The notes under the pieces were generated by a model. It saw nothing but the letters and a program-made list of their open reading frames with translations, was not told the origin of the DNA and ran no database searches. This document shows positions 27,975 to 37,195 of a stretch of DNA of 64,000 bases, piece after piece (the stretch's first letter is position 1; every line of letters starts with the position of its first letter). Source of the DNA: Candidatus Spongiisociaceae bacterium (GTDB taxonomy: Bacteria; Actinomycetota; Acidimicrobiia; Spongiisociales; Spongiisociaceae); the NCBI GenBank assembly GCA_965262915.1, contig OZ253564.1, forward strand, positions 1,568,001-1,632,000, in the 5' to 3' direction. The position numbers and the translations under genes were made by a program.

Positions 27975-28048
27975 GGCCCCGTCGTCCAGCCGGCCTAGGA
28001 CGCCGGCCTTTCAAGCCGGAAACGCGGGTTCGAATCCCGTCGGGGCCA
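27975..28048 (+). tRNA. tRNA-Glu(TTC)
   Basis: Acceptor GGCCCCG/CGGGGCC, anticodon arm CCGGC-CTTTCAA-GCCGG, T-loop GTTCGAATC; CCA not encoded. Confidence 0.95.
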
Positions 28049-28261
28049 CGGCGGGATGTTCGCCACCAATGGGCTGTGATGTTCGCCACTTAGCCGCTGA
28101 GGGGGTTGCAGGCACCGGTTTTGGGGTGTTCGGGCGGTGCCGGGTGGTGGTTCAGCTGGTTTCGCGGTGGGGTGGGATGGTTTTGCCGGCCCGGGGTGGG
28201 GGTGGGTGATGTTCGGGACGTGGCGGGTCGGACCCTTCCGGGTTGCCGCGTCGTGGTGCCC

Positions 28262-28519
28262 CTAGCGAGCGGGGACTGTCACCTGCCCTACTACCTGACC
28301 GTTGAACGTCTGCGCGACTGTGACATGATCCGGCAGCGACGGGTCTAGGCGGACGATGAAGCCGCCTTCGAGGGCGTACCCGTCGGGGAGTCGTGCTGCC
28401 AAGGCGTCAAGCTCCGCCATAATTGCTTCGTCGTGTGCCCCCGCTGCGGCTTCGTCGGACAACCGCGACAAAGCGGCTTCCATCTCTTCCCAGGTTTCTA
28501 CGTGTTCACGGGTAGCCAT
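28262..28519 (-). CDS. putative antitoxin/partner protein (LPDGY...DP.LPDH family)
   Basis: Acidic 85-aa ORF downstream of toxin-like gene; homologous to 29448-29717. Confidence 0.6.
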   Translation of the reverse strand: MATREHVETWEEMEAALSRLSDEAAAGAHDEAIMAELDALAARLPDGYALEGGFIVRLDPSLPDHVTVAQTFNGQVVGQVTVPAR

Positions 28520-28569
28520 CCCCGAATCGTAACACCGGCGGCGGCTCCGGGGTTGCTGTGGTTCGCTCA

Positions 28570-28812
28570 CTAGCGTAGATATCGTCGGTCCGTCCGGTCT
28601 GATATGACATGGGCGTGGTAGACAACCAATTCGCTGCCACGCCATTCGGCAAGAACCATGGCTGGGCCTTGAGATGTCGGTCCGACATAGCGTATTCCGC
28701 TCTCGCCCCGTCGGGTGGTTATGGCCGCATAGCCGAATGGGTGGTCAATAGCCCACTGGATGTCACCCTGGGTCAGTCCCTGCCTGAACGCGGATTGTAG
28801 GTAACGGGCCAT
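28570..28812 (-). CDS. putative RelE/BrnT-fold toxin
   Basis: SAFRQG...DI...YVG...LVVYHA pattern of small actinobacterial RelE-like toxins. Confidence 0.65.
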   Translation of the reverse strand: MARYLQSAFRQGLTQGDIQWAIDHPFGYAAITTRRGESGIRYVGPTSQGPAMVLAEWRGSELVVYHAHVISDRTDRRYLR

Positions 28813-29447
28813 GTGATAAGGGGAAGATTACCCGCACGTGCGGGGGGCTGCGCCCGCGGCTAGCGGGGTCGGAGACGGTCGGATCGGGGGGGCGTTCACG
28901 GACCAGGTCGCGGACGGCGACTGTGGCTGCGGTTGGATGGCGCAGGCCCCTGCGGGAATGTGGAAGTCCCCCCCACTGTTAATGTGGAAGTCCCCGTGGG
29001 AGTGGTCGTATCACCGCAGGTCAGGGATGGTGGCGAACATCCCTCAGAGGGATGTTCGCCACTAATGGGCTGTGATGTTCGCCACTTAGGCGCTGAGGGG
29101 GTTGCAGGCACCGGTTTTGGGGTGTTCGGGCGGTGCCGGGTGGTGGTTCAGCTGGTTTCGCGGTGGGGTGGGATGGTTTTGGCGGCCCGGGGTGGGGGTG
29201 GGTGATGTTCGGGACGTGGCGGGTCGGACCCTTCCGGGTTGCCGCGTCGTGGGGGGTTAGCCTGCCTGGGGTGGTCCCCTGCTGTGCTGGTTCGGGTTGT
29301 GTTCCGCTGGCAGCGGCGACTGTTCGACGGTTGCCTCGGTGATGTGTGGGGTGTGTTCGGGTGTACTGGTGGGGTCGGGCCGGGCGTGGGTGTCAGGCTA
29401 TGCGGCTTGGGTTGATCCGTCCTGAGAGACGATAAGGGTCGGGGCTG

Positions 29448-29717
29448 CTACCGGCGGACGGGAACCCTGCACATACCGGAGGGGACACCGTTCACAAGAG
29501 CGGGTATGTAAAAATGGTCGGGCAGGCCCGGGTCGGTGCGTATCACATGGTTGTGTTCGTCGAGTACGTACCCGTCGGGTAGTTGGCTGGCTAGATATTC
29601 GATGACGTCCACCCCATGGTCGAACTCGCCCGCTTCAGCGGCCCGGGCCAGCTCCCGGTACCGCTCCTCCTCTTCTTCTTCGCTCAGGGTATCGGCCGCG
29701 TGTGATGTCATCGTCAT
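29448..29717 (-). CDS. putative antitoxin/partner protein
   Basis: AAEAGEFD...LPDGYVLD...RTDPGLPDH; homologue of 28262-28519. Confidence 0.6.
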   Translation of the reverse strand: MTMTSHAADTLSEEEEEERYRELARAAEAGEFDHGVDVIEYLASQLPDGYVLDEHNHVIRTDPGLPDHFYIPALVNGVPSGMCRVPVRR

Positions 29718-29784
29718 GCGGCGCAGCATACCCCATCCGATACGCGAAAGGGTCTCCCCGCCCCCCCGGGGGACGGATAGCGGA

Positions 29785-30006
29785 CTAGTACCGTCTGCAT
29801 ATATCTGCGTGGAACACGACAATGTCCCCGCGATGGTCATACTCATAGAGCACTTCGATCAAGTCCATGTTCGACGCGAACCCGACTTTCGATATCACCA
29901 GCTGACTTCCCCTAAGTTCCGAAACGGAGATGGGGCTGTCTAGTACCCTTTCGATGTCCCAGCGTGTGTAACCGTGCTTGAACGCCGAGTTCTTATAGCG
30001 GACCAT
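29785..30006 (-). CDS. putative RelE/BrnT-fold toxin
   Basis: SAFKHGYTRWDI...VGF...LIEVLY...IVVFHA. Confidence 0.7.
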   Translation of the reverse strand: MVRYKNSAFKHGYTRWDIERVLDSPISVSELRGSQLVISKVGFASNMDLIEVLYEYDHRGDIVVFHADICRRY

Positions 30007-30469
30007 GCTCACCTTCGTCCCACCGGACACCAACTCGGTCGTCTCCAGACGACATCCAGGCTCGTAACAGATTAGGGACCACGGTGGAACCGGTCCAGAC
30101 ATGGTCGGGCACATACTGGACCAGGGGTTCCGTCAGAACCCGCGGGTGGATGGCGCAGGCCCCTGCGGGAATATGGAAGTCCCCCCACTGATAATGTGGA
30201 AGTCCCCATGGGAATGGTCGTATCACCGCAGGTCAGGGATGGTGGCGAACATCCCACGGCGGGGTCTTCGCGTGTTGGTGGGTGTCGGGTTCGCGGGTTA
30301 GGGGGTTCGGTCGGGCTTTTGGCTGGTTTGGGGGGTTTTTGGGGGTCTGATGGGGTGTGTGCGGTGCTGCGGGGTGCCGGTTATGGGTGTTGGTGGTGTT
30401 GGCGGCTGGTTGTGGACGCGTTTGGTTCGATGGGTGGGTCCCGTCGATGGGGGATGGGTCGGGGTTGGT

Positions 30470-30775
30470 TTATGGGGGTGCCCGGCTGGGTGTGGGATTG
30501 GTCGGGTGTGGGGTTGGTGTGGCTGATGCGGTGGTGTTGGGGGTTGTCTGGTCGCGGTGGGCCGGGGTGGTGTGGTTCCGGTTCTTGGGGCGGCAGGCGC
30601 GTCGGGTGTGTTTGAGGTTGTGGATGACGGCGGCCATGGGCGCGGCGAGTGTGTGAGCAGCGAGACCGAACGCGCGGCAGGATGCTCTGTTGAAGCTGCC
30701 GTCGTCTTTGATCATGCCGTTGACGCCTTCGACGGGGTTACGTCCGGCGTAGAACGACCCGTCGGTTCCGTCCAC
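30470..30775 (-). pseudogene. DDE transposase C-terminal fragment (IS4/IS5-superfamily type)
   Basis: Y-AG-R-NPV-E-GVNGMI-K fits the Y(2)R(3)E(6)K signature; low-complexity tail ending RAPP. Confidence 0.75.
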
Positions 30776-31132
30776 TAACCTGTACCGCTACCCGCCTGTC
30801 GCCAAGATATGTCAGGTCATCGGGGCAACACCCTCCCGGTGGGTACCCCCAATACCGATGGAAACAAAAACCCGAACAACGCTGACAACAACAAGTAGGA
30901 GAACGACAATGCGGGGACGGCGTGTCACAGGGTATCGATACAGTTGATCGCGATCAGCAATCTGGGGAGGTCGGTCAGGTGTTTCGGAACTTCTGGAAGT
31001 GGTTCACCGGCTTATACCCGGCTACGGTAGTAGCCGTGCCTGCGTTGGCATTCGACAGTGTCCGTCTTGACATATGCAGTACTGCACGACACAAAACCGC
31101 TACTGGTGACATGCGACATATAGACTCACAGC

Positions 31133-31867
31133 ATGGCTGACCGCAGCGCTATCGAGTGGACGGATGCTACCTGGAACCCCGTGACAGGATGTTCCCAGAC
31201 GTCGCCGGGTTGTGACAATTGCTACGCGTTGACACTCGCTGTACGTCTGAAGGCCATGGGTAATCCACGGTACCAAGTAGACGGAGACCCGAAACGAAGC
31301 GGACCCGGCTTCGGACTCCAACTCCACCACGACCTACTGGACGTTCCCCACAGGTGGAAACGCCAGCGAACCATTTTCGTGAACTCGATGAGCGATCTCT
31401 TCCATCCAGACGTTCCCTTCGATTTCATTACTGAGGTGTTCACCGTCATGAACGAGACCCGACGGCATCGCTTCCAGATTCTGACCAAACGTTCCCACCG
31501 GATGGCACGAACTGCTGTAGACCTCGATTGGTCAGACAACATCTGGATGGGGGTCAGCGTCGAGAATCGACGTTACACGTTTCGTATTGACCACCTGAGA
31601 GAAGTTCAAAGCCATATCCGATTCCTATCTCTCGAACCTCTAATCGGGCCGCTTCCCGCTCTTGACCTGACCGGGATACATTGGGTAATCGTAGGTGGTG
31701 AGAGCGGGTATAAGGCACGGCCTATTGATCCTGCTTGGGTTCGCGACATCCGTGACCAGTGTGCGGACGCTTCAGTACCGTTCTTCTTCAAACAGTGGGG
31801 GGGCCGTACATCTAAGGCTGGCGGTCGACTGCTTGACGACCGTACGTTTGACGAGATGCCTGTTTAG
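31133..31867 (+). CDS. DUF5131 / phage Gp37-Gp68 family three-Cys (radical SAM-like) protein
   Basis: IEWTDATWNPVTGCSQTSPGCDNCYA, FVNSMSDLFH, WVIVGGESG, FFFKQWGG. Confidence 0.93.
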   Translation: MADRSAIEWTDATWNPVTGCSQTSPGCDNCYALTLAVRLKAMGNPRYQVDGDPKRSGPGFGLQLHHDLLDVPHRWKRQRTIFVNSMSDLFHPDVPFDFITEVFTVMNETRRHRFQILTKRSHRMARTAVDLDWSDNIWMGVSVENRRYTFRIDHLREVQSHIRFLSLEPLIGPLPALDLTGIHWVIVGGESGYKARPIDPAWVRDIRDQCADASVPFFFKQWGGRTSKAGGRLLDDRTFDEMPV

Positions 31868-31882
31868 GAAACTAGTCCCCAG

Positions 31883-32725
31883 ATGAGTGATCGGCTGTTC
31901 GACCCTGGCCCTGAGACGCGAACCGAAGTGCGGATCAAGTCACTGACAGAACCCGTCTGGAGCGAGAACAAGGCTTTGCTGATCGCGCGGTACCTGCGGT
32001 TGTTTGTGCTCATCACTCGCCATGGGACATATCTTGATCCTTTCGCTGGTCCACAGACAGATCGCTCTGAGCTAGCTTGGACCGCTCGGATGGTCCTGGA
32101 TAGTGAGCCGAAGTGGTTCCGCCACTTCTATCTGTTTGGCATTGATCGGCAGAAAGAGAAACGACTGCAGTGTTTGGCTGCGGAACACAGCGATCGTGAT
32201 GTGCAGGTTTACCTAGGGGACTCCAATCTTGTACTTCCGGAGGTTCTTCCGGTTGGTTCTATCCGTGAACGCGAGGCGACGTTTTGTCTGCTGGACCAGA
32301 GAACGTTCGAATGCGAATGGCAACTGTGTGAGCATGTGTCCCGTTTGCGGCCAGGATCGATGAAGGTGGAGCAGTTCTATTTTCTAGCAAACTATTGGAT
32401 GTCTCGTTCCCTGTCTGGTATCAAGACGGATGACGGCGACCGTGGAGTCAGGGCATGGCTTGGGCGGGATGACTGGAGAGAGTTTCAAGCGATGCATCCG
32501 TTGTCAAGGCGAGACTTGTTCGTTGATAAGTTCAGGGAACTTGGTTACCACTCTGTCAAGTCGTGGCCGATCTACGGGAATATTAGAGGGCATATCGCAG
32601 TGATGTATTACATGATCCACTCTACAGATCATCCGGAAGCCCCTAAACTGATGCGCCGTGCCTATTCTCAGGCGGTTGCCCCACCAGTACTGATCGACCG
32701 TCAACTTGATCTAATACTGGACTGA
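31883..32725 (+). CDS. three-Cys-motif partner protein (TcmP-like, SAM-binding)
   Basis: WSENK...YL, YLDPFAGP, GDSN, FCLLD, YYMIHSTDH; adjacent to DUF5131; lower GC than backbone. Confidence 0.85.
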   Translation: MSDRLFDPGPETRTEVRIKSLTEPVWSENKALLIARYLRLFVLITRHGTYLDPFAGPQTDRSELAWTARMVLDSEPKWFRHFYLFGIDRQKEKRLQCLAAEHSDRDVQVYLGDSNLVLPEVLPVGSIREREATFCLLDQRTFECEWQLCEHVSRLRPGSMKVEQFYFLANYWMSRSLSGIKTDDGDRGVRAWLGRDDWREFQAMHPLSRRDLFVDKFRELGYHSVKSWPIYGNIRGHIAVMYYMIHSTDHPEAPKLMRRAYSQAVAPPVLIDRQLDLILD

Positions 32726-32729
32726 AACC

Positions 32730-32806
32730 ATGATTACACAGTTACTAGTGTATTGGACTAGAGGTAAACTGGATATACTCCGGCGTTATCTTGATGCCTT
32801 CACAGA
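32730..32806 (+). pseudogene. second TcmP-like N-terminal fragment
   Basis: YWTRGKLDILRRYLDAFT, after which similarity is lost. Confidence 0.55.
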
Positions 32807-33714
32807 GTTGGGATCATCGTCCAAGCATTCCGGCCGACAAAGTGTAGACCTTGCGGTGCGATCACAGCTACCGAACGGGGACATACAGACGGCGGTGTTC
32901 CATTTGGCGGAGTTTATGAGCACGCCAGCTTCAGCTGTTCCGGACCGAAGCGATCTGAATGATCTCCCAGAACATGGGTTCGGTTGGCGCACGAGAGTAG
33001 TACTAACCGCCGGTAGGTACAACGTTCCGGTATGTCGTCCAGAGCGGGCATCGGTGTCTTCGTATCAGATGACGTTGCCACCGGCGCTACAACTCGAGCG
33101 ATGCCGTGGCTGCGTTCACAGATCGTTACCAATATGCACATGCCGCCCGTCCAGAACCCCGACCCAATATAGCCGAAGCAGTCAACACAATCCTTACATG
33201 CCTATGCCAAATCCGGGATGACTACCACCCGCAGGCAGATCCAAGGGCGGCCTGGAGTCGCACTGCTGGCTGACCTGATCGACATGCGGTAACCCAGACC
33301 CTACTCCCCAACACCTTCGAGGAAACATGCTCAGGACGACTGAGCGTCTCGGGCGTTGCCGATGCGGTCTCATCTACTGAGAGTAAACTTGAAGTCCCCC
33401 CTGTTTCCGACTTGAAGTCCTACCTGGACCCCCTGCGAAGTGCTTGGTCAGGGGTGGTGGCGAAGACCCCACGGCGCCACGACGCCGTCGCGAGGTCTTC
33501 GCGTGTTGGGGGTGTTGGGTGCGCGGGTTAGGCGGTTCCGGGGTCGGCCCAAGCCACGCCGCGGGGGTGCCGACGTGCGCGGTCGCGGGCGGCTTGTTGC
33601 GTGGCTGGCCACGACGCCGCCGCGCTGTGCCGAGCGTGGATGATGGTGGTGTAGGCGGTAGTTCTGACCCGTCCACATCGCCGGGACCCACCCGTTGAAC
33701 CAAACTATCAGAGC

Positions 33715-35429
33715 CTATGAGTCGCCAAACAGTTCTGCATACTTGGGCAGACCGGCCTCCGAGTGGAATGCAACGCCCTCAAATCTGTCAACGAACACGA
33801 CTAGCTTGTTCCTGGAAATAGCTAGTCCACCGTAGACTGTCACATTAGGGGCTCATCGCGTTTCAGTGGGGAGTGACGGTCGCGAGTAGGTCCCAGTTGG
33901 GTTTCCCGGCGTAGAGAAGGGCCCGTATTCGGTAGTTCGCGAAGTTGGGTAACCCGAACGCTGCTCGTTTGATCCGTTTGATTAGGTTGTTGAGGGCTTC
34001 GGTGGCGTCTGTTGGTTACCTTCGAGATGTGCCAGTTGGTGATCTGGGGGGTCCAGCGGGCGATGGTGCGACCCAGCTTGTTGATCTCGGGTGGGCAGGA
34101 TTCGTCCTGGAGGTCGTCTGCGAGCTGGAGGGTGTATCGGAGAGCAAGGACCGGACTCTCGATCCCGTAGATGCCCCGTACCGTTTCGGTTGCGTGCCAG
34201 GCTGTGCGTACCTCGCCGTGGGGGTCACCGGCATCGAGGAGGCCACGCAGCCGTGTTTGACCGCGGTCGCTGATCCTCTCATGCGCGGCGGTGAGGAGGC
34301 GGCGTATCCGATACAGCGGGTCATCCTTGCGGCCTCTGTGTCCCAGGGTCTCGTTTTGGACTCTTCGTCGTAGGTCGTCGAGACGCTGGTTGGCTAGGCG
34401 GATGACACCGAACGGGTCCGCTACCCCGGGGGCGTGGGGCAGCACCCTGTCATACGCCTTCCGATACGAACCGGACATGACCCGACACCGCCCAGCGGAT
34501 AGCCTCACACCATTCGGTGGGCTGCGCCCGGAACCAGGCTGCGGCGCTTTCTGCCGTTCTACCACCGACTATGTCGAACCGGCTGGTGGCCTCCCACGTC
34601 GACGACAGAGGTGCACCAGACCTTGGTACGCCACCGGCCTTTCCGCCAGAACAACGCTTCTTGTCGATGCCCACAGCTTGGACCTCGCCTATCCGGTCGG
34701 TGTCGGCCCCCAGGAGGGCTTCGCCCCAGCGGCCGACCTCGTTGTTCACCGTATGCCACCCACAACCAAGCTCTGCGGCGACCTCGTCGACCGGGCGACC
34801 CCGCCCACCCACCCCGATGGTCACCCACCTCGCCGCTCGGGATGTCAACAACGCCCGTTGGGGACCAATCGTGGGGTCTTGCTCGATGAACGATCTGAGC
34901 GCACAGTCGGTGTTCGGACATGTCCAACGGCGTTTCCGCCACCGCAGCCGAACCGGACGGCCGAACGCCGGTAAATCCACCAACACCACCGTCCGCTCAC
35001 CCTTGGACCACACCGGGCCACCACAGGCCTCACAGGACGGCCGGGGCTTGCGAGACCCGATCACCACCCCAAGCGGTGCACCCTCGCCCGAGTCGTTGAT
35101 CCCTACCAGGTCAACGTCGCCTAGGCCTACCAACTTCTCGCACATGCGCGCAGGGATCAGCTTCCACAGGGGTCCTCCTGCCTCGGATGTCGCTTATCAA
35201 CAGCCGATTATGGAGGACCCCTCCTCACTTCTGGTGGATTCCGATCCCCCCTGGCAGATCCCCTACTCCCCACCCATTCGCGAAGAGCCACATTAGGTCG
35301 CTCTAGTTCTCCCAAGCCGATCTCGTGCAAATCTGGCATGCTCATTGTCCAGAGGGGGTTGCCCAGCACTAAGGCGACATCTACTGGAGTGACACCGTGC
35401 CGACAGGCTGGCTCATCTATGTGAACCAT
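33715..35429 (-). pseudogene. RelE/BrnT-like toxin gene interrupted by ISL3
   Basis: Removing the IS and one TSD restores an 88-aa frame MVHIDEPACRHGV...ERPNVTVYGG...VAFHSE...FGDS*. Confidence 0.75.
33850..35289 (-). mobile_element. ISL3 family insertion sequence, transposase frameshifted
   Basis: Ends GGCTCATCGCG / CGCGAAGAGCC; 8-bp TSD ACATTAGG (33842-33849, 35290-35297); zinc finger CEAC..CPNTDC, DPFGVI, RRRVQNETLGHRGRK. Confidence 0.93.
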
Positions 35430-35455
35430 AACGCGTTAAACCGTGGACGATGTAT

Positions 35456-35743
35456 TTATGCGGCTACGGTGGCTAGGAACTGCTTGACTGCGGCTCTACG
35501 GTCTGACGGTATGAGCATCAGGAGCCACTGGCGGTCTTCCACGGGGCGATGGGATATCACCCCAGCCGCCTGATCCGGGTGCAGTTCGTTCAGTAAACGG
35601 CGCCAGTCCTCATCGGCATAAGTGTCGAAGTAGGCGTTTGCTATTTGTCTGCCCTGCTCCAAGGCGCCTGGGGGTGCTGGAACGAGAGTGTCTGGTGTAG
35701 CAGCCTGCGAGATGCGCTTGATGATGTCGTCGTTATACTGCAT
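35456..35743 (-). CDS. hypothetical partner of the interrupted toxin, MgtE N-domain-like helices
   Basis: LLNELHPDQAAGVI...RQWLLMLIP..RR; immediately upstream of and co-oriented with the toxin. Confidence 0.55.
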   Translation of the reverse strand: MQYNDDIIKRISQAATPDTLVPAPPGALEQGRQIANAYFDTYADEDWRRLLNELHPDQAAGVISHRPVEDRQWLLMLIPSDRRAAVKQFLATVAA

Positions 35744-36058
35744 TATTCATAGATTGTAGCATGGCTTGATAGGGCCAAGGGGAGGTGACGCTAGGTCTGG
35801 TGCTGCACAATTCGGAAGAGACGTCCTGCTGCTGGCCCTGATACTTGAAGGTCGTGCCACCCCTGGCCGGGAGCGTGCAGGGAACCACTGACCCAGAGCT
35901 ATCCGTTCACTTCTCGGTTGTCGAGACGACGAGGCGACGTCGTTCCTAGTTCTGAGGTGACGCCGTCCAGAGTTGCCTTCCGGAGTGTCTGTTCAGGAGT
36001 GGTCGCGAACACCCCACAGCACCGCCGCCGCCACCGCCGCGCCGCCGTGCCGTGCCGA

Positions 36059-36105
36059 GGGGTCTTCGGGTGGGTGTGGTTTAGGGGGGGGTGCTCTGCC
36101 CCGGG
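36059..36105. mobile_element. left-end remnant of a fifth cassette
   Basis: GGGGTCTTCG end plus a minus-strand GRAPP-encoding tail; no matching right end found. Confidence 0.5.
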
Positions 36106-36336: not shown

Positions 36337-36482
36337 TGAGGTTGACCCGGTTTGGTGGACACTCTAAGACTTGGGGATTGCCCCAGGAAGGAGTGTTCAG
36401 AGTATGCCGAGAACGAGAGCGCCGTACCCGGTTGAGTTCCGGGAGGAGATGGTTCGCCTGGTCAGGGCGGGTCGTAGCCCTT
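36337..36482 (+). mobile_element. IS3 family left end with truncated orfA
   Basis: TGAGGTTGACCCGGTTTGGTGGACACT end; MPRTRAPYPVEFREEMVRLVRAGRSP from 36404. Confidence 0.8.
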
Positions 36483-37195
36483 CCCGAAGGACCGGGATAG
36501 GTGCCACACGCTTACGTTGCCGATGTGGCGACCAGGCACTTCGGGCCGGCGGACCGAGAAGTCGTACACTCGGGCCTCGTGCCAGGACTGCATGCTCCGT
36601 TCGACGAAGCTGGCGGCCCGGGCTCTGGTATAGGGGGCGGTCGCCCAAGGTAGGAACCGGGCCAGTTCGGTCTTGGAAGCGTTGACGGCCCGGTAAAGGG
36701 CGTCGATGTCCCGTCTCCTGAAGGGGCGTAGTACGGACCGTTCCGTGTGGCGGTCGATGGGCGGCAGGGTTCCCGCGATGATCTGCTCATGTCCGGTCGT
36801 TCCTGGATGGGCAAAGCTGTATCGAGGAGGTTCGGCTCCGGAGACTAGCTAGGCGCAATCCTGCTGAACCGAATGGAACGGGTGGGGGACTCTCTCGATG
36901 ACTACACCACCCGTACCCTGGTCCTGCACGGCACCGAGGACAGCTCCGTCCCCCTTCTGCCAGTGGGCCACTGGGCGCACTTCCGTCCGTAGATCGGAAG
37001 GTCTATCGAAGTATCAAGCATGGATCGATTGACGAACCCCTAGGAGTGGCGCTGCTCAATGACATCATCACCCGGGTACGTGAACAGGTCAGAAGTGGGC
37101 TCCAGAAGACAAAATCACCAGAGCCTTGGGGCCATTGGGTACGATAAGAAAACTAGTAGGATAGATTGGATAACAGGAGATAAGGAGGACTTCGT

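Follow-up and report, generated by a model that had tools for sequence, protein, structure and literature searches.

The 64-kb stretch of DNA analyzed herein (the window; C1:1568001-1632000 of the 5.06-Mb single-contig genome of a Candidatus Spongiisociaceae bacterium, 64% G+C, labeled G000) carries, directly 3' of the intact tRNA-Glu(ttc) gene, four cassette-like units (U1-U4) that are arranged head-to-tail and are bounded by inverted ends of 12-14 bp and by 5-bp junction words (Table 1). The tRNA genes were called with ARAGORN and Rfam, and the end motifs and borders were read directly off the sequence; the motif GGG(G/A)T(C/G)TTCGC opens each unit, and its inverse closes it. The junction words read, in order, ACGGC, TCAGA, ACGGC, ACGGC (followed by 16 nt) and ACAGC (followed by 38 nt), where the first word begins at the discriminator A of the tRNA (base 28048), ACGGC recurs after U2 (30256-30260) and after U3 (33471-33475), and ACAGC stands after U4. 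The coordinates, ends and 5-mers of U1-U4, including this recurrence, had been described in the original prediction made from the DNA alone, and they were borne out by the sequence and by a shuffle control, in which the pattern GGGRTSTTCGCS with at most one mismatch gave 22 matches in the window against 6.57 +/- 2.33 in the shuffles, a number reached by 0 of 100 shuffles; 13 of the 22 matches, including all seven exact ones, fell within 28053-36070. Taken together with the distribution of these ends described below, the array probably arose from site-specific DDE transposons of an undescribed family that insert just past the ends of tRNA genes.

The peptide encoded at 30470-30775 on the minus strand of U3 retrieved by tblastn three long copies at approximately 1.66, 1.68 and 4.16 Mb of the source genome, together with several tails. 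The original prediction had attributed the array to a DDE transposase family of which only a fragment remained in the units, and full-length homologues of this peptide, carrying these ends, were indeed recovered. The three full-length copies, all of which lie outside the window, had open frames of 595-625 codons, and each was preceded on the same strand by an open reading frame (ORF) of 317-340 codons overlapping it by 4 nt. The autonomous element was accordingly ordered as left end, transposase gene (read toward the left end), a partner gene for a protein of ~317 aa upstream of it, cargo and right end; no autonomous element was present within the window.

Where these elements lay at tRNA genes, their position was constant. 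At tRNA-Glu, tRNA-Met and tRNA-Arg, the left terminal inverted repeat (TIR) started 3 nt past the tRNA end given by ARAGORN, which corresponds to 5 nt past the acceptor stem. The transposase gene was convergent on the tRNA in the Met and Arg arrays, and the left end had the same orientation at Glu. Furthermore, a single element was located behind GCGGGTTCAACTCCCGCAGGAGGCACCA, a remnant comprising T-arm, acceptor and CCA, which was not called as a tRNA by ARAGORN, and its +5 spacing was unchanged. Since the same spacing was kept behind this tRNA 3' fragment, the recognized feature seems to lie within the last ~25 nt of the tRNA gene. The proposal that a DDE family inserts at a fixed offset from tRNA genes was hence supported in the source genome at +5 and in one orientation for three tRNAs and one tRNA 3' fragment, and it held in other genomes as well.

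A scan of genome contigs (genome_contigs) yielded 22 loci, nearly all of them titled as Acidimicrobiia metagenome-assembled genomes. A tRNA or tmRNA gene lay downstream of the transposase within the flank in 13 of the 22 loci, and the first such gene was convergent in all 13; in six loci, the tRNA (Met, Leu, Ser, Glu, Met and Tyr) was found 143-337 nt beyond the end of the transposase match. The element started 5 nt past the acceptor stem in L007, L009, L011, L012, L015 and L028, and 6 nt past it in L013. The +5 junction was kept despite wholly changed end motifs in members whose transposases were ~30-35% identical, and the distant end motifs read GTTAGCGA (L011 and L012), GTGCACAA (L054) and GGCC... 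(L063). In a sample of 401 genomes of the class, eight, including the source genome, possessed the transposase gene, and four of the eight distinct foreign places showed a convergent tRNA-Gly, tRNA-Lys, tRNA-Leu(taa) or tmRNA with the same +5 junction, at ~205-225 nt past the transposase match end as calculated by arithmetic on printed coordinates. The targets outside the source genome added at least eight tRNA/tmRNA species, including Leu, Ser, Tyr, Gly, Lys and tmRNA. Overall, the 5-nt offset was observed at ~16 independent junctions and at least 11 tRNA/tmRNA species in several genomes, with 6 nt at one junction, and GGTTCRAnTCC was located 17-24 nt upstream at every target. By chance, assuming ~50 tRNAs per 3-5 Mb, an oriented tRNA 3' end would fall in a given 40-nt span only about once in several thousand loci.

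The gene 5' of tRNA-Glu(ttc) was syntenic in relatives. At the syntenic tRNA-Glu, the empty-site alleles envisaged in the original prediction were found in seven of 12 genomes, where the native ACCAN... followed the tRNA; the occupied sites were those of G000, G001, G002, G006 and G007, the last with a truncated unit. The tRNA-Gln/tRNA-Glu(ctc) pair was located ~785 nt past tRNA-Glu(ttc) in G018 and G010 versus 10.36 kb in the window, which indicates that essentially all of the region from 28053 to ~38.4 kb was acquired. The tRNA-Glu arrays of congeners had ends in common and almost no units in common. None of the claims made herein depends on the unpublished genome G022.

Table 1. Features of the tRNA-Glu(ttc) array (window coordinates) and of related loci in the source genome (C1 coordinates).
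Feature	Position	Strand	Evidence or remarks
tRNA-Glu(ttc), target gene, intact	27975-28048	+	Rfam RF00005, 67.9 bits; ARAGORN gives 27975-28049
ACGGC, copy of the target duplication next to the tRNA (discriminator + 4 nt)	28048-28052	+	sequence
U1, non-autonomous type-A unit, 991 bp	28053-29043	+	ends GGGATGTTCGCCAC ... GTGGCGAACATCCC
U1 left TIR	28053-28066		
U1 second copy of end motif	28076-28089		
U1 cargo, two small ORFs	28570-28812, 28262-28519	-	no Pfam/NCBIfam match; paralogues of the U2 pair
U1 right-end subterminal repeats	28958-28971, 28982-28995		ATGTGGAAGTCCCC, two copies
U1 right TIR	29030-29043		
TCAGA, U1/U2 junction word, unlike the tRNA word	29044-29048	+	sequence
U2, non-autonomous type-A unit, 1207 bp	29049-30255	+	ends as in U1, GGGATGTTCGCCAC ... 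GTGGCGAACATCCC
U2 RGPP of transposase-tail remnant	29269-29280		90% identity to P0061 tail
U2 cargo ORFs	29785-30009, 29448-29717	-	paralogues of the U1 pair
U3, type-B unit, 3210 bp, ACGGC on both sides	30261-33470	+	ends GGGGTCTTCGCG ... GGCGAAGACCCC
U3 transposase remnant, C-terminal 101 codons	30470-30775	-	Y-x2-R-x3-E-x6-K; RAPP at 30473-30484
U3 cargo, DUF5131	31133-31867	+	PADLOC PDC-M41B, E 1.6e-110
U3 cargo, TcmP	31883-32725	+	PADLOC PDC-M41A, E 1.8e-4 (weak)
U3 cargo ORF, 163 aa, no assigned family	32730-33221	+	
Spacer of 16 nt between post-U3 ACGGC and U4 left end	33476-33491	+	
U4, older type-B unit	33492-36015	+	ends GAGGTCTTCGCG ... CGCGAACACCCC; ACAGC after
ISL3-family insertion sequence, 1448 bp, inside U4, transposase split over two frames, unrelated to the cassette family	33841-35288	-	Pfam and NCBIfam ISL3 matches
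U4 ORF, 95 aa, MgtE_N-like match	35456-35743	-	
Doubtful "U5" remnant, left-end-like	36059-36085	+	GGGGTCTTCGGG...; no right end after
Single element	C1:476302-479044		behind GCGGGTTCAACTCCCGCAGGAGGCACCA (T-arm + acceptor + CCA remnant)
tRNA-Met(cat) array, 28 kb	C1:1661584-1689799		begins at the tRNA
tRNA-Arg(cct) array, 26 kb	C1:4155525-4181769		begins at the tRNA

As listed in Table 1, U1 and U2 have type-A ends, and U3 and U4 have type-B ends. The first 211 nt of U2 were 97% identical to those of U1, and the abutted ends of the two units form a 16-nt perfect palindrome. A type-A cognate transposase (P0061-like, 39% identical to the resident ones) was absent from the source genome, and the mobilization in trans put forward in the original prediction is accordingly no more than a hypothesis. 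The U3 peptide carries the Y-x2-R-x3-E-x6-K signature just as claimed, and its stop codon lies 209 nt from the left terminus. Of the transposase tails assigned to the tRNA-proximal ends of the units, RAPP in U3 and RGPP in U2 were confirmed, and U1 has none; since these tail remnants are kept, U2 and U3 can be regarded as deletion derivatives. The duplication is confined to 5 bp, in line with the earlier remark that no tRNA 3' half is duplicated. The left TIR of U4, GAGGTCTTCGCG, contains one change. As for the fifth remnant placed after U4, the left-end-like stretch at 36059 exists; it aligned, however, with the internal third repeat of the left ends and not with the terminal one, and its RAPP at 36086-36097 is 27 nt from the supposed end, as against ~209 nt elsewhere, so that its standing as a fifth unit is doubtful. 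Beyond it, where the sequence toward tRNA-Gln is decayed, the start of a short ORF at 36405-36490 reads MPRTRAPYPVEFREEMVRLV..., which we take to resemble the N-terminus of an IS3-family OrfA. The ISL3-family insertion sequence (IS) within U4 was highly multicopy by depth. Contigs of four of four runs (four studies) joined 33840 to 35289 with nine shared letters, and this copy is consequently recent or strain-specific.

The left ends have ~210 bp in common in the alignment, a conserved G/T-rich stretch that opens with the TIR of 12-14 bp; the end motif recurs 23 bp inside and again, as GGGGTGTTCGGG, ~70 bp in. RNA folding revealed a conserved hairpin ~30 nt past the stop codon of the transposase (z = -3.0 for the whole 247 nt), and promoter and terminator scans of the left end gave nothing beyond this hairpin. 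The 33-nt segment that contains the hairpin in U3 (30420-30452) was also found inverted in U4 at 33673-33705 (88% complementary). A terminus of 27 bp is common to the right ends, which also hold, in subterminal position, two direct repeats 23-24 bp apart; the sequence of these repeats varies by subfamily: ATGTGGAAGTCCCC in U1/U2, ACTTGAAGTCC in U3, GAGGTGACGTCC in U4 and the Arg array, and GGAGGTGACAGAYTCC in the Met array.

Among 104 full-length relatives of the transposase, the catalytic residues D217, D340 and E515 were present in 104, 103 and 99, respectively, and the residues of the Y-x2-R-x3-E-x6-K signature were similarly conserved (R511, 99/104; Y508, 87/104; K/R522, 87/104). The core motifs were D...D(R/Q)(G/H)Y...Y-x2-R-x3-E-x6-K and a C-terminal NL motif, and the protein also possesses a Cys-rich insert (CPQC...CC). 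In Pfam, the reference copy matched DDE_Tnp_1_6 alone (22.9 bits versus a cut-off of 25.1), and the best NCBIfam model was IS1182 (NF033551), which scored 25.8 bits versus a cut-off of 270 (E 4.5e-6) over residues 440-555 only. At E <= 0.01, DDE_Tnp_1_6 (PF13751) was matched by 11 of 18 family members and DDE_Tnp_1 (PF01609) by five of 18. No curated cut-off in Pfam or NCBIfam was reached for IS1182, IS5, Tn3, ISKra4 or others, in good agreement with the original prediction, which had not expected a described family such as Tn3 or ISKra4. Judging from these motifs and matches, the transposase is a divergent enzyme of the IS4/IS5/IS1182 superfamily that lies below every curated family threshold and is assigned at the superfamily level only.

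A word-indexed search of 5.8 billion proteins returned 26 relatives of the enzyme, none of which was named, and a full hidden Markov model search of 1.84 billion representatives returned 1321 at E <= 0.001 and 269 at E <= 1e-30. The sole source name among ten transposase clusters was "transposase", and 72,556 plasmids gave one weak match, annotated as "hypothetical protein". An alignment scan with the transposase detected no relatives in the JGI metagenome contigs and viral contigs. No description of the family was found in the full texts searched, supplementary files and ISfinder aside, and the transposons probably constitute a family undescribed so far.

Every intact transposase copy ended in R-A-P-P immediately before the stop codon. 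The C-termini of 172 family proteins were RAPP in 53, RPPP in seven, RGPP in two and RSPP in two; a further 11 had RAPP or RGPP within the last 13 residues, and many of the others were fragments. P599 and P600 were kept in 93% and 91% of the 104 full-length members, which is about as frequent as E515. In seven copies, 208-211 nt separated the stop codon from the left terminus; one of the seven is a deletion derivative in which "...PTRAPP" is all that remains. The linker between the last conserved helix (..HNL..) and RAPP had no conserved sequence, was rich in T, P, A and D, and measured 30-93 aa (median 47), a length that is enough to span the ribosomal exit tunnel. In the long ORFs of the source genome, RAPP and RGPP were among the rarest permutations of their own residues. 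According to two reports, RAPP and RGPP are robust arrest motifs that are EF-P-resistant and avoided in proteomes (PMC10951233, PMC12992588); the string "transpos" is absent from PMC12992588. We propose that stalling at the RAPP tail may tether or throttle the transposase.

The partner gene was found directly upstream of the transposase in L007, L008, L009 and L014 as well as in the distant L011 (47% and 32% identity). No Pfam or NCBIfam family was assigned to its product, and a genome-wide PF00589 search did not match the partner genes. In profile searches of the PDB, the top match was both times the XerC-like tyrosine recombinase 4a8e (E 0.38 with 16 sequences, E 0.019 with 43), and the alignments spanned the box I region, "GAGL(R)...G.G..R.VP". 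An hhalign comparison of the partner with 14 PF00589 integrases of the source genome gave 64.5% probability (E 6e-5) over the whole catalytic domain. The protein-atlas neighbours of the partner scored 0.98, and one cluster contained PF00589 in 26% of its members. Furthermore, a profile search yielded 340 relatives, many of which are named "integrase" by JGI. Across 108 partner relatives, GAGL occupied the place of the first catalytic Arg and L294/L297 that of the Tyr, and R212, R263 and R265 were invariant; in the hhalign and PDB alignments, L/I/M occupied the Arg-I position of tyrosine recombinases, G/R that of Lys, P/I that of His-II and L that of Tyr, and only Arg-II (R265) was kept. The catalytic set is absent throughout the family irrespective of the fold, and we read the partner as a putative DNA-binding subunit that looks like a tyrosine recombinase devoid of its catalytic Tyr. 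The absence of an integrase stated in the original prediction stood for the array and the window (none of the 31 PF00589 matches in the genome falls there) and failed for the autonomous copies, which carry this integrase-like protein. Since the target remains constant while the end motifs diverge, the partner is favored as the target selector, with about even chances.

A related module was encountered on the plasmid pSCL3 of Streptomyces clavuligerus (L066 2568-5296), which encodes a partner-like protein of 322 aa and a transposase-like protein of 579 aa (27% identity), both annotated as "hypothetical protein". On the basis of this module, the superfamily appears to reach beyond Acidimicrobiia, and the tRNA rule may not.

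The 5-mers on the two sides were equal around single elements and whole arrays, which is what the 5-bp target duplication of the original prediction entails. Equal words flanked the single element at 476302-479044 (ACCAA/ACCAA), the whole 28-kb Met array (ACAGC/ACAGC), the whole 26-kb Arg array (GCTCC/GCTCC), a reversed array (ACTTA/ACTTA), U3 and also U1 and U2 together (ACGGC/ACGGC), and units E2-E4 of the Met array together (ACGCA/ACGCA). In other genomes, they were found for a 1.3-kb unit in L015 (ACACT), for a 7.4-kb element with perfect 12-bp TIRs in L028 (ACCGA), and in L007 (ACAGC), G002 (ACAGC) and G007 (ACACA). Since the 5-mer starts at the discriminator and varies by site, it is most readily understood as duplicated target DNA and not as a recombination core.

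The state of the units changes with their distance from the tRNA. The TIRs of U1 and U2 are perfect, whereas that of U4 is mutated, and spacers accompany U4 as does the secondary ISL3 copy, which is absent in four other sampled populations. The tRNA-proximal unit was the intact one in the Met and Arg arrays; in the distal Arg array, right ends occurred that had no left ends, and IS30-like, IS110 and ISL3 insertions were present as well. This decay gradient fits growth of the arrays at the tRNA end and agrees with the earlier suggestion that older units are pushed outward; the unequal 5-mers within arrays require that composite moves or recombination have also acted. At the tRNA-Glu of G002 (L067, C2 190-210), the sequence reads tRNA-ACAGC-T-ACAGC-unit-ACAGC, and ACAGC-T-ACAGC is suggestive, as a single case, of what excision of a later tRNA-proximal element would leave. 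Runs of ACGGC after some right ends had also been considered as excision scars and were dropped as general evidence, because the genome contains ACGGCACGGC 15 times and its complement 18 times. In the sequencing contigs, the only material inspected for this purpose, no joint skipped a whole unit and no direct sign of excision was found. Contigs of four of four runs joined a U3-type right end via 14 other letters to a U3-type left end, a join that could stem from a circle, from a tandem copy, or from a different locus or strain.

The cargo of the units appears to consist mostly of defense genes. PADLOC matches were obtained for seven of ten cargo proteins tested (type IIG restriction-modification twice, HKD+Snf2, SoFic, PDC-S48, PDC-M41B and, weakly, PDC-M41A). 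In particular, unit E1 of the Met array encodes an HKD+Snf2 helicase and a type IIG restriction-modification enzyme, and the Arg array encodes an MmeI-like type IIG enzyme, a DEDDh-BRCT protein (PDC-S48) and a SoFic-like protein. The cargo of U1 and U2 consists of paralogous two-gene cassettes (36% and 40% identity, ~74-89 aa each), which had no match in the Pfam, NCBIfam or lenient Pfam scans and may be called toxin-antitoxin-like by their layout alone. Of the toxin and defense cargo originally proposed, the defense part agrees with the PADLOC matches, and the toxin part would correspond to the cassettes of U1 and U2.

Two further observations concern other loci of the source genome. The target of the single element is a tRNA 3'-half remnant with encoded CCA (L006 1270-1301, C1:476270-476301), and PF00589 integrase fragments lie at C1:472230-472690, ~4 kb upstream, on account of which the remnant may be an old copy of an integrase attachment site. 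Just outside the right end of the reversed array, a match to the Rfam family Ms_IGR-7 (Actinobacteria sRNA) was found at 44.9 bits versus a gathering threshold of 45 (L005 2222-2340, C1:686222-686340).

A working model can be formulated from these features. As the comparisons show, the elements insert one way, with the left end toward the tRNA and the transposase gene convergent, and the acceptor stem of the tRNA, tmRNA or tRNA 3' fragment ends 5 nt before the first transposon base. Because the duplicated 5 bp run from the discriminator to +4, the mature tRNA sequence remains intact. The tRNA fixes the target, for which reason later arrivals land between it and earlier copies, resulting in head-to-tail arrays. 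Deletion derivatives such as U1-U4 keep the ends and swap the cargo. The chemistry would be performed by the DDE enzyme (D217, D340 and E515), and the partner, as a catalytically dead tyrosine-recombinase-like DNA binder, would read the T-arm/acceptor and position the transposase, as TnsD does in Tn7. The RAPP-stop would stall the ribosome, by which the enzyme might be held by its own left end (in cis) or its synthesis throttled. Unequal 5-mers inside arrays would be left from earlier target sites and carried in composite moves. In its complete form, this model describes a two-protein homing transposon, in which the T-arm/acceptor of whatever tRNA or tmRNA gene is read by a dead integrase relative, which then passes the site on to the DDE transposase of IS1182/IS4-like type; RAPP arrest behind a tunnel-length linker would confine this enzyme to its own element, giving rise to a self-growing defense archive; we advance this combination tentatively, as possible rather than probable.

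Several observations weigh against this model or parts of it. No tRNA lay within the flank at nine of the 22 loci in other genomes, nor at four of the eight places in the class sample. The genome-wide search of ends against tRNAs, which had been expected to reveal a tRNA bias, did place arrays at Glu, Met and Arg and one element at a fragment; it also disclosed a reversed three-unit array (C1:686348-692299), which has no tRNA in its 10-kb locus and runs into a degenerate unit, and, at 537249 and 766925, solo ends. Both RAPP and a neighboring tRNA are missing in the Streptomyces relative, and RAPP occurs 46 times elsewhere in the long ORFs of the source genome, a count that is low among its permutations and yet not zero. 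The likeness of the partner to tyrosine recombinases is weak: at E <= 1, PF00589 and Pfam were matched by none of 16 partner members and none of ten relatives named "integrase" by JGI, and hhalign with a 108-sequence partner alignment gave only 9% probability (E 0.0037). Moreover, most single units inside arrays are flanked by unequal words (U1, ACGGC/TCAGA; Met E1, ACAGC/ACGCA; E3, ACAGC/ACAGA; E4, ACAGA/ACGCA). An origin of these odd words from other tRNAs of the source genome was rejected, since they match the discriminator+4 of none of them; we infer that they were carried over in composite moves of several units or arose by recombination between arrays.

The role of the partner could be different. 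The transposase itself might recognize the tRNA gene, for example through the resemblance of the T-loop GGTTCGA to the GTTCGC core of its own ends, with the partner employed otherwise (to organize the ends, to regulate or to control excision). An attraction to sequences resembling their own ends exists in several IS families; the left ends here hold two or three copies of (G/A)NTTCGC(G/C), the GGTTCRAnTCC motif precedes every target, and the subfamily-specific candidate sites for the partner, the right-end subterminal repeats, are inside the element and not in the target. However, the T-loop is 30 nt from the first end motif and not 23 nt, that is, out of register, and in L011, L012, L054 and L063 the end motif changes, yet the tRNA/tmRNA target and the +5 offset stay, which indicates that target choice does not follow end sequence. 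We regard this alternative as a serious one that nevertheless falls well short of an even chance. The same tRNA 3' ends are the classic target of integrases, and the partner, in which R212, R263 and R265 are retained, can be aligned to boxes I and II, so it might instead be an active recombinase with an unusual active site that mobilizes the units as islands, the 5-mer being its crossover region; junctions such as GTGGCGAACATCCC-TCAGA-GGGATGTTCGCCAC do resemble inverted core arms around a short spacer. The 108 relatives, however, have no Tyr, His or first Arg at the catalytic positions, PF00589 does not match the partner, only 5 bp and no part of the tRNA are duplicated, and a DDE enzyme whose triad is fully conserved accompanies the partner in every case. 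The overlap of tyrosine recombinases is usually 6-8 bp, longer than this 5-bp spacer, and a crossover region must match between partners, whereas the 5-mer varies by site (17 junction words). Mobilization by an integrase is hence very unlikely.

The association with tRNA genes might also reflect untargeted insertion, with copies surviving by selection only in "safe havens" flanking tRNAs. Such flanks are known hot spots of islands, and some copies and solo ends do occur away from tRNAs. Selection would, however, permit any intergenic place and both orientations, which is at odds with the 13 of 13 convergent first tRNAs and with an exact 5-nt offset at all but one of the junctions, and we give this explanation hardly any credence. 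It is likewise highly improbable that the elements belong to a family already described, be it Tn3-derived miniature elements, ISL3 with its GGCTCTTCGC-type ends or IS1182. The ends of the Tn3 family start with GGGG and the family makes 5-bp duplications, the TIR here resembles the resident ISL3 ends (GGGCTCTTCGCG), and the best NCBIfam match was IS1182. Against this, the transposase matched no Tn3 or ISL3 model and stayed far below the IS1182 cut-off (25.8 vs 270 bits) and below that of DDE_Tnp_1_6 (22.9 vs 25.1), its TIRs measure 12-14 bp and not ~38 bp, the resident ISL3 copies make 8-9-bp duplications, and the plasmid collection and cluster names offered nothing more specific than one weak "hypothetical protein" and "transposase". 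Site-specific insertion by an undescribed DDE family past tRNA ends remains, with high probability, the best explanation as a whole.

To our knowledge, nearly all known cases of site-specific "safe-harbour" transposition in bacteria involve Tn7-like elements, which employ three to five proteins or a CRISPR effector. The conserved machinery here amounts to two genes and would home to a site that is present ~50 times per genome and is left unharmed. If the targeting is confirmed, a new transposon family would be added, of which the library of 1.84 billion proteins holds 1321 cluster representatives at E <= 0.001, together with a new case of a recombinase fold reused as a DNA-targeting module; the assembly of defense islands beside tRNA genes without a nearby integrase would be explained, and a compact candidate for programmable or universal-site DNA insertion would be at hand. 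Within the literature searched, the RAPP-stop tail would be the first arrest motif tied to a transposase, and it makes the old question of how cis-preference arises in transposases directly testable.

Compared with known systems, the elements described herein most resemble Tn7-like transposons in behavior: both insert in one orientation at a fixed distance downstream of a conserved gene that is left unharmed, make a 5-bp duplication, often carry defense cargo and use, here as a proposal, a separate DNA-binding protein as target selector. The Tn7 relatives are directed by TnsD/TniQ to sites downstream of glmS or, in some CRISPR-associated ones, of tRNA genes. In contrast, the two-gene module has one IS4/IS5/IS1182-type DDE enzyme and no TnsA, TnsB, TnsC or TniQ, its ends are GGGG instead of TGT...ACA, its selector would be integrase-like, and it addresses many tRNAs and tmRNA instead of one site; Tns proteins were also not found among the scanned cargo ORFs of Met E1 and the Arg array. 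The IS1182/IS5/IS4 group shares with the transposase the catalytic core motifs, the C-terminal NL motif and weak matches in the C-terminal catalytic part, and the triad, the signature and a match to the Pfam DDE_Tnp_1 clan were all found, yet the scores were far under the cut-offs. Neither the partner gene and the Cys-rich insert nor the RAPP tail, the fixed tRNA target and the cargo arrays are known to us from any IS1182, IS5 or IS4 element. The 5-bp duplication and GGGG ends agree with Tn3, whereas the Tn3-type transposase (~1000 aa) and repeats of ~38 bp are lacking. As for ISL3, the family transposase had no PF01610 match, and the sole ISL3 is the secondary IS in U4.

tRNA-integrating islands, tycheposons and casposons are comparable in their target at tRNA 3' ends, tandem arrays, variable cargo and preserved tRNA. 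Islands and tycheposons depend on tyrosine or serine recombinases and duplicate a tRNA segment, and casposons depend on Cas1 and make ~14-15 bp duplications; the present elements differ in having a DDE enzyme, short TIRs and a 5-bp duplication from the discriminator. Integrons likewise form polarized arrays of promoter-less-looking cassettes growing at one fixed end. Here, however, IntI, attI and attC are missing, each unit has its own inverted ends and 5-bp duplication, and the units derive from autonomous transposons by deletion, as the tail remnants of U2 and U3 show. The R-A/G-P-P motif at the C-terminus is found in RAPP-type arrest peptides such as ApdA and ApdP, in which R-A-P-P is likewise followed by the stop (PMC10951233, PMC12992588); these are, unlike the 600-aa enzyme with no gene downstream, small secreted or membrane leaders regulating a downstream gene. 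According to PMC10132070, ISAjo2 of the IS1202 group inserts in one orientation 5 bp from the site of a tyrosine recombinase (XerC) and makes 5-bp duplications, and in both systems the transposase presumably reads a protein-DNA complex of the tyrosine-recombinase type. ISAjo2 differs in its TnsB-like transposase, TGT/ACA ends and use of the host XerC, compared with the IS1182/IS4-like enzyme, the dead element-encoded protein and the tRNA end proposed here. Judged from these sequence-level likenesses, the closest system is Tn7 by function, the IS1182/IS4 group by enzyme and the IS1202 group by logic, and the dead integrase-like partner and the arrest-motif tail would be two new features if confirmed.

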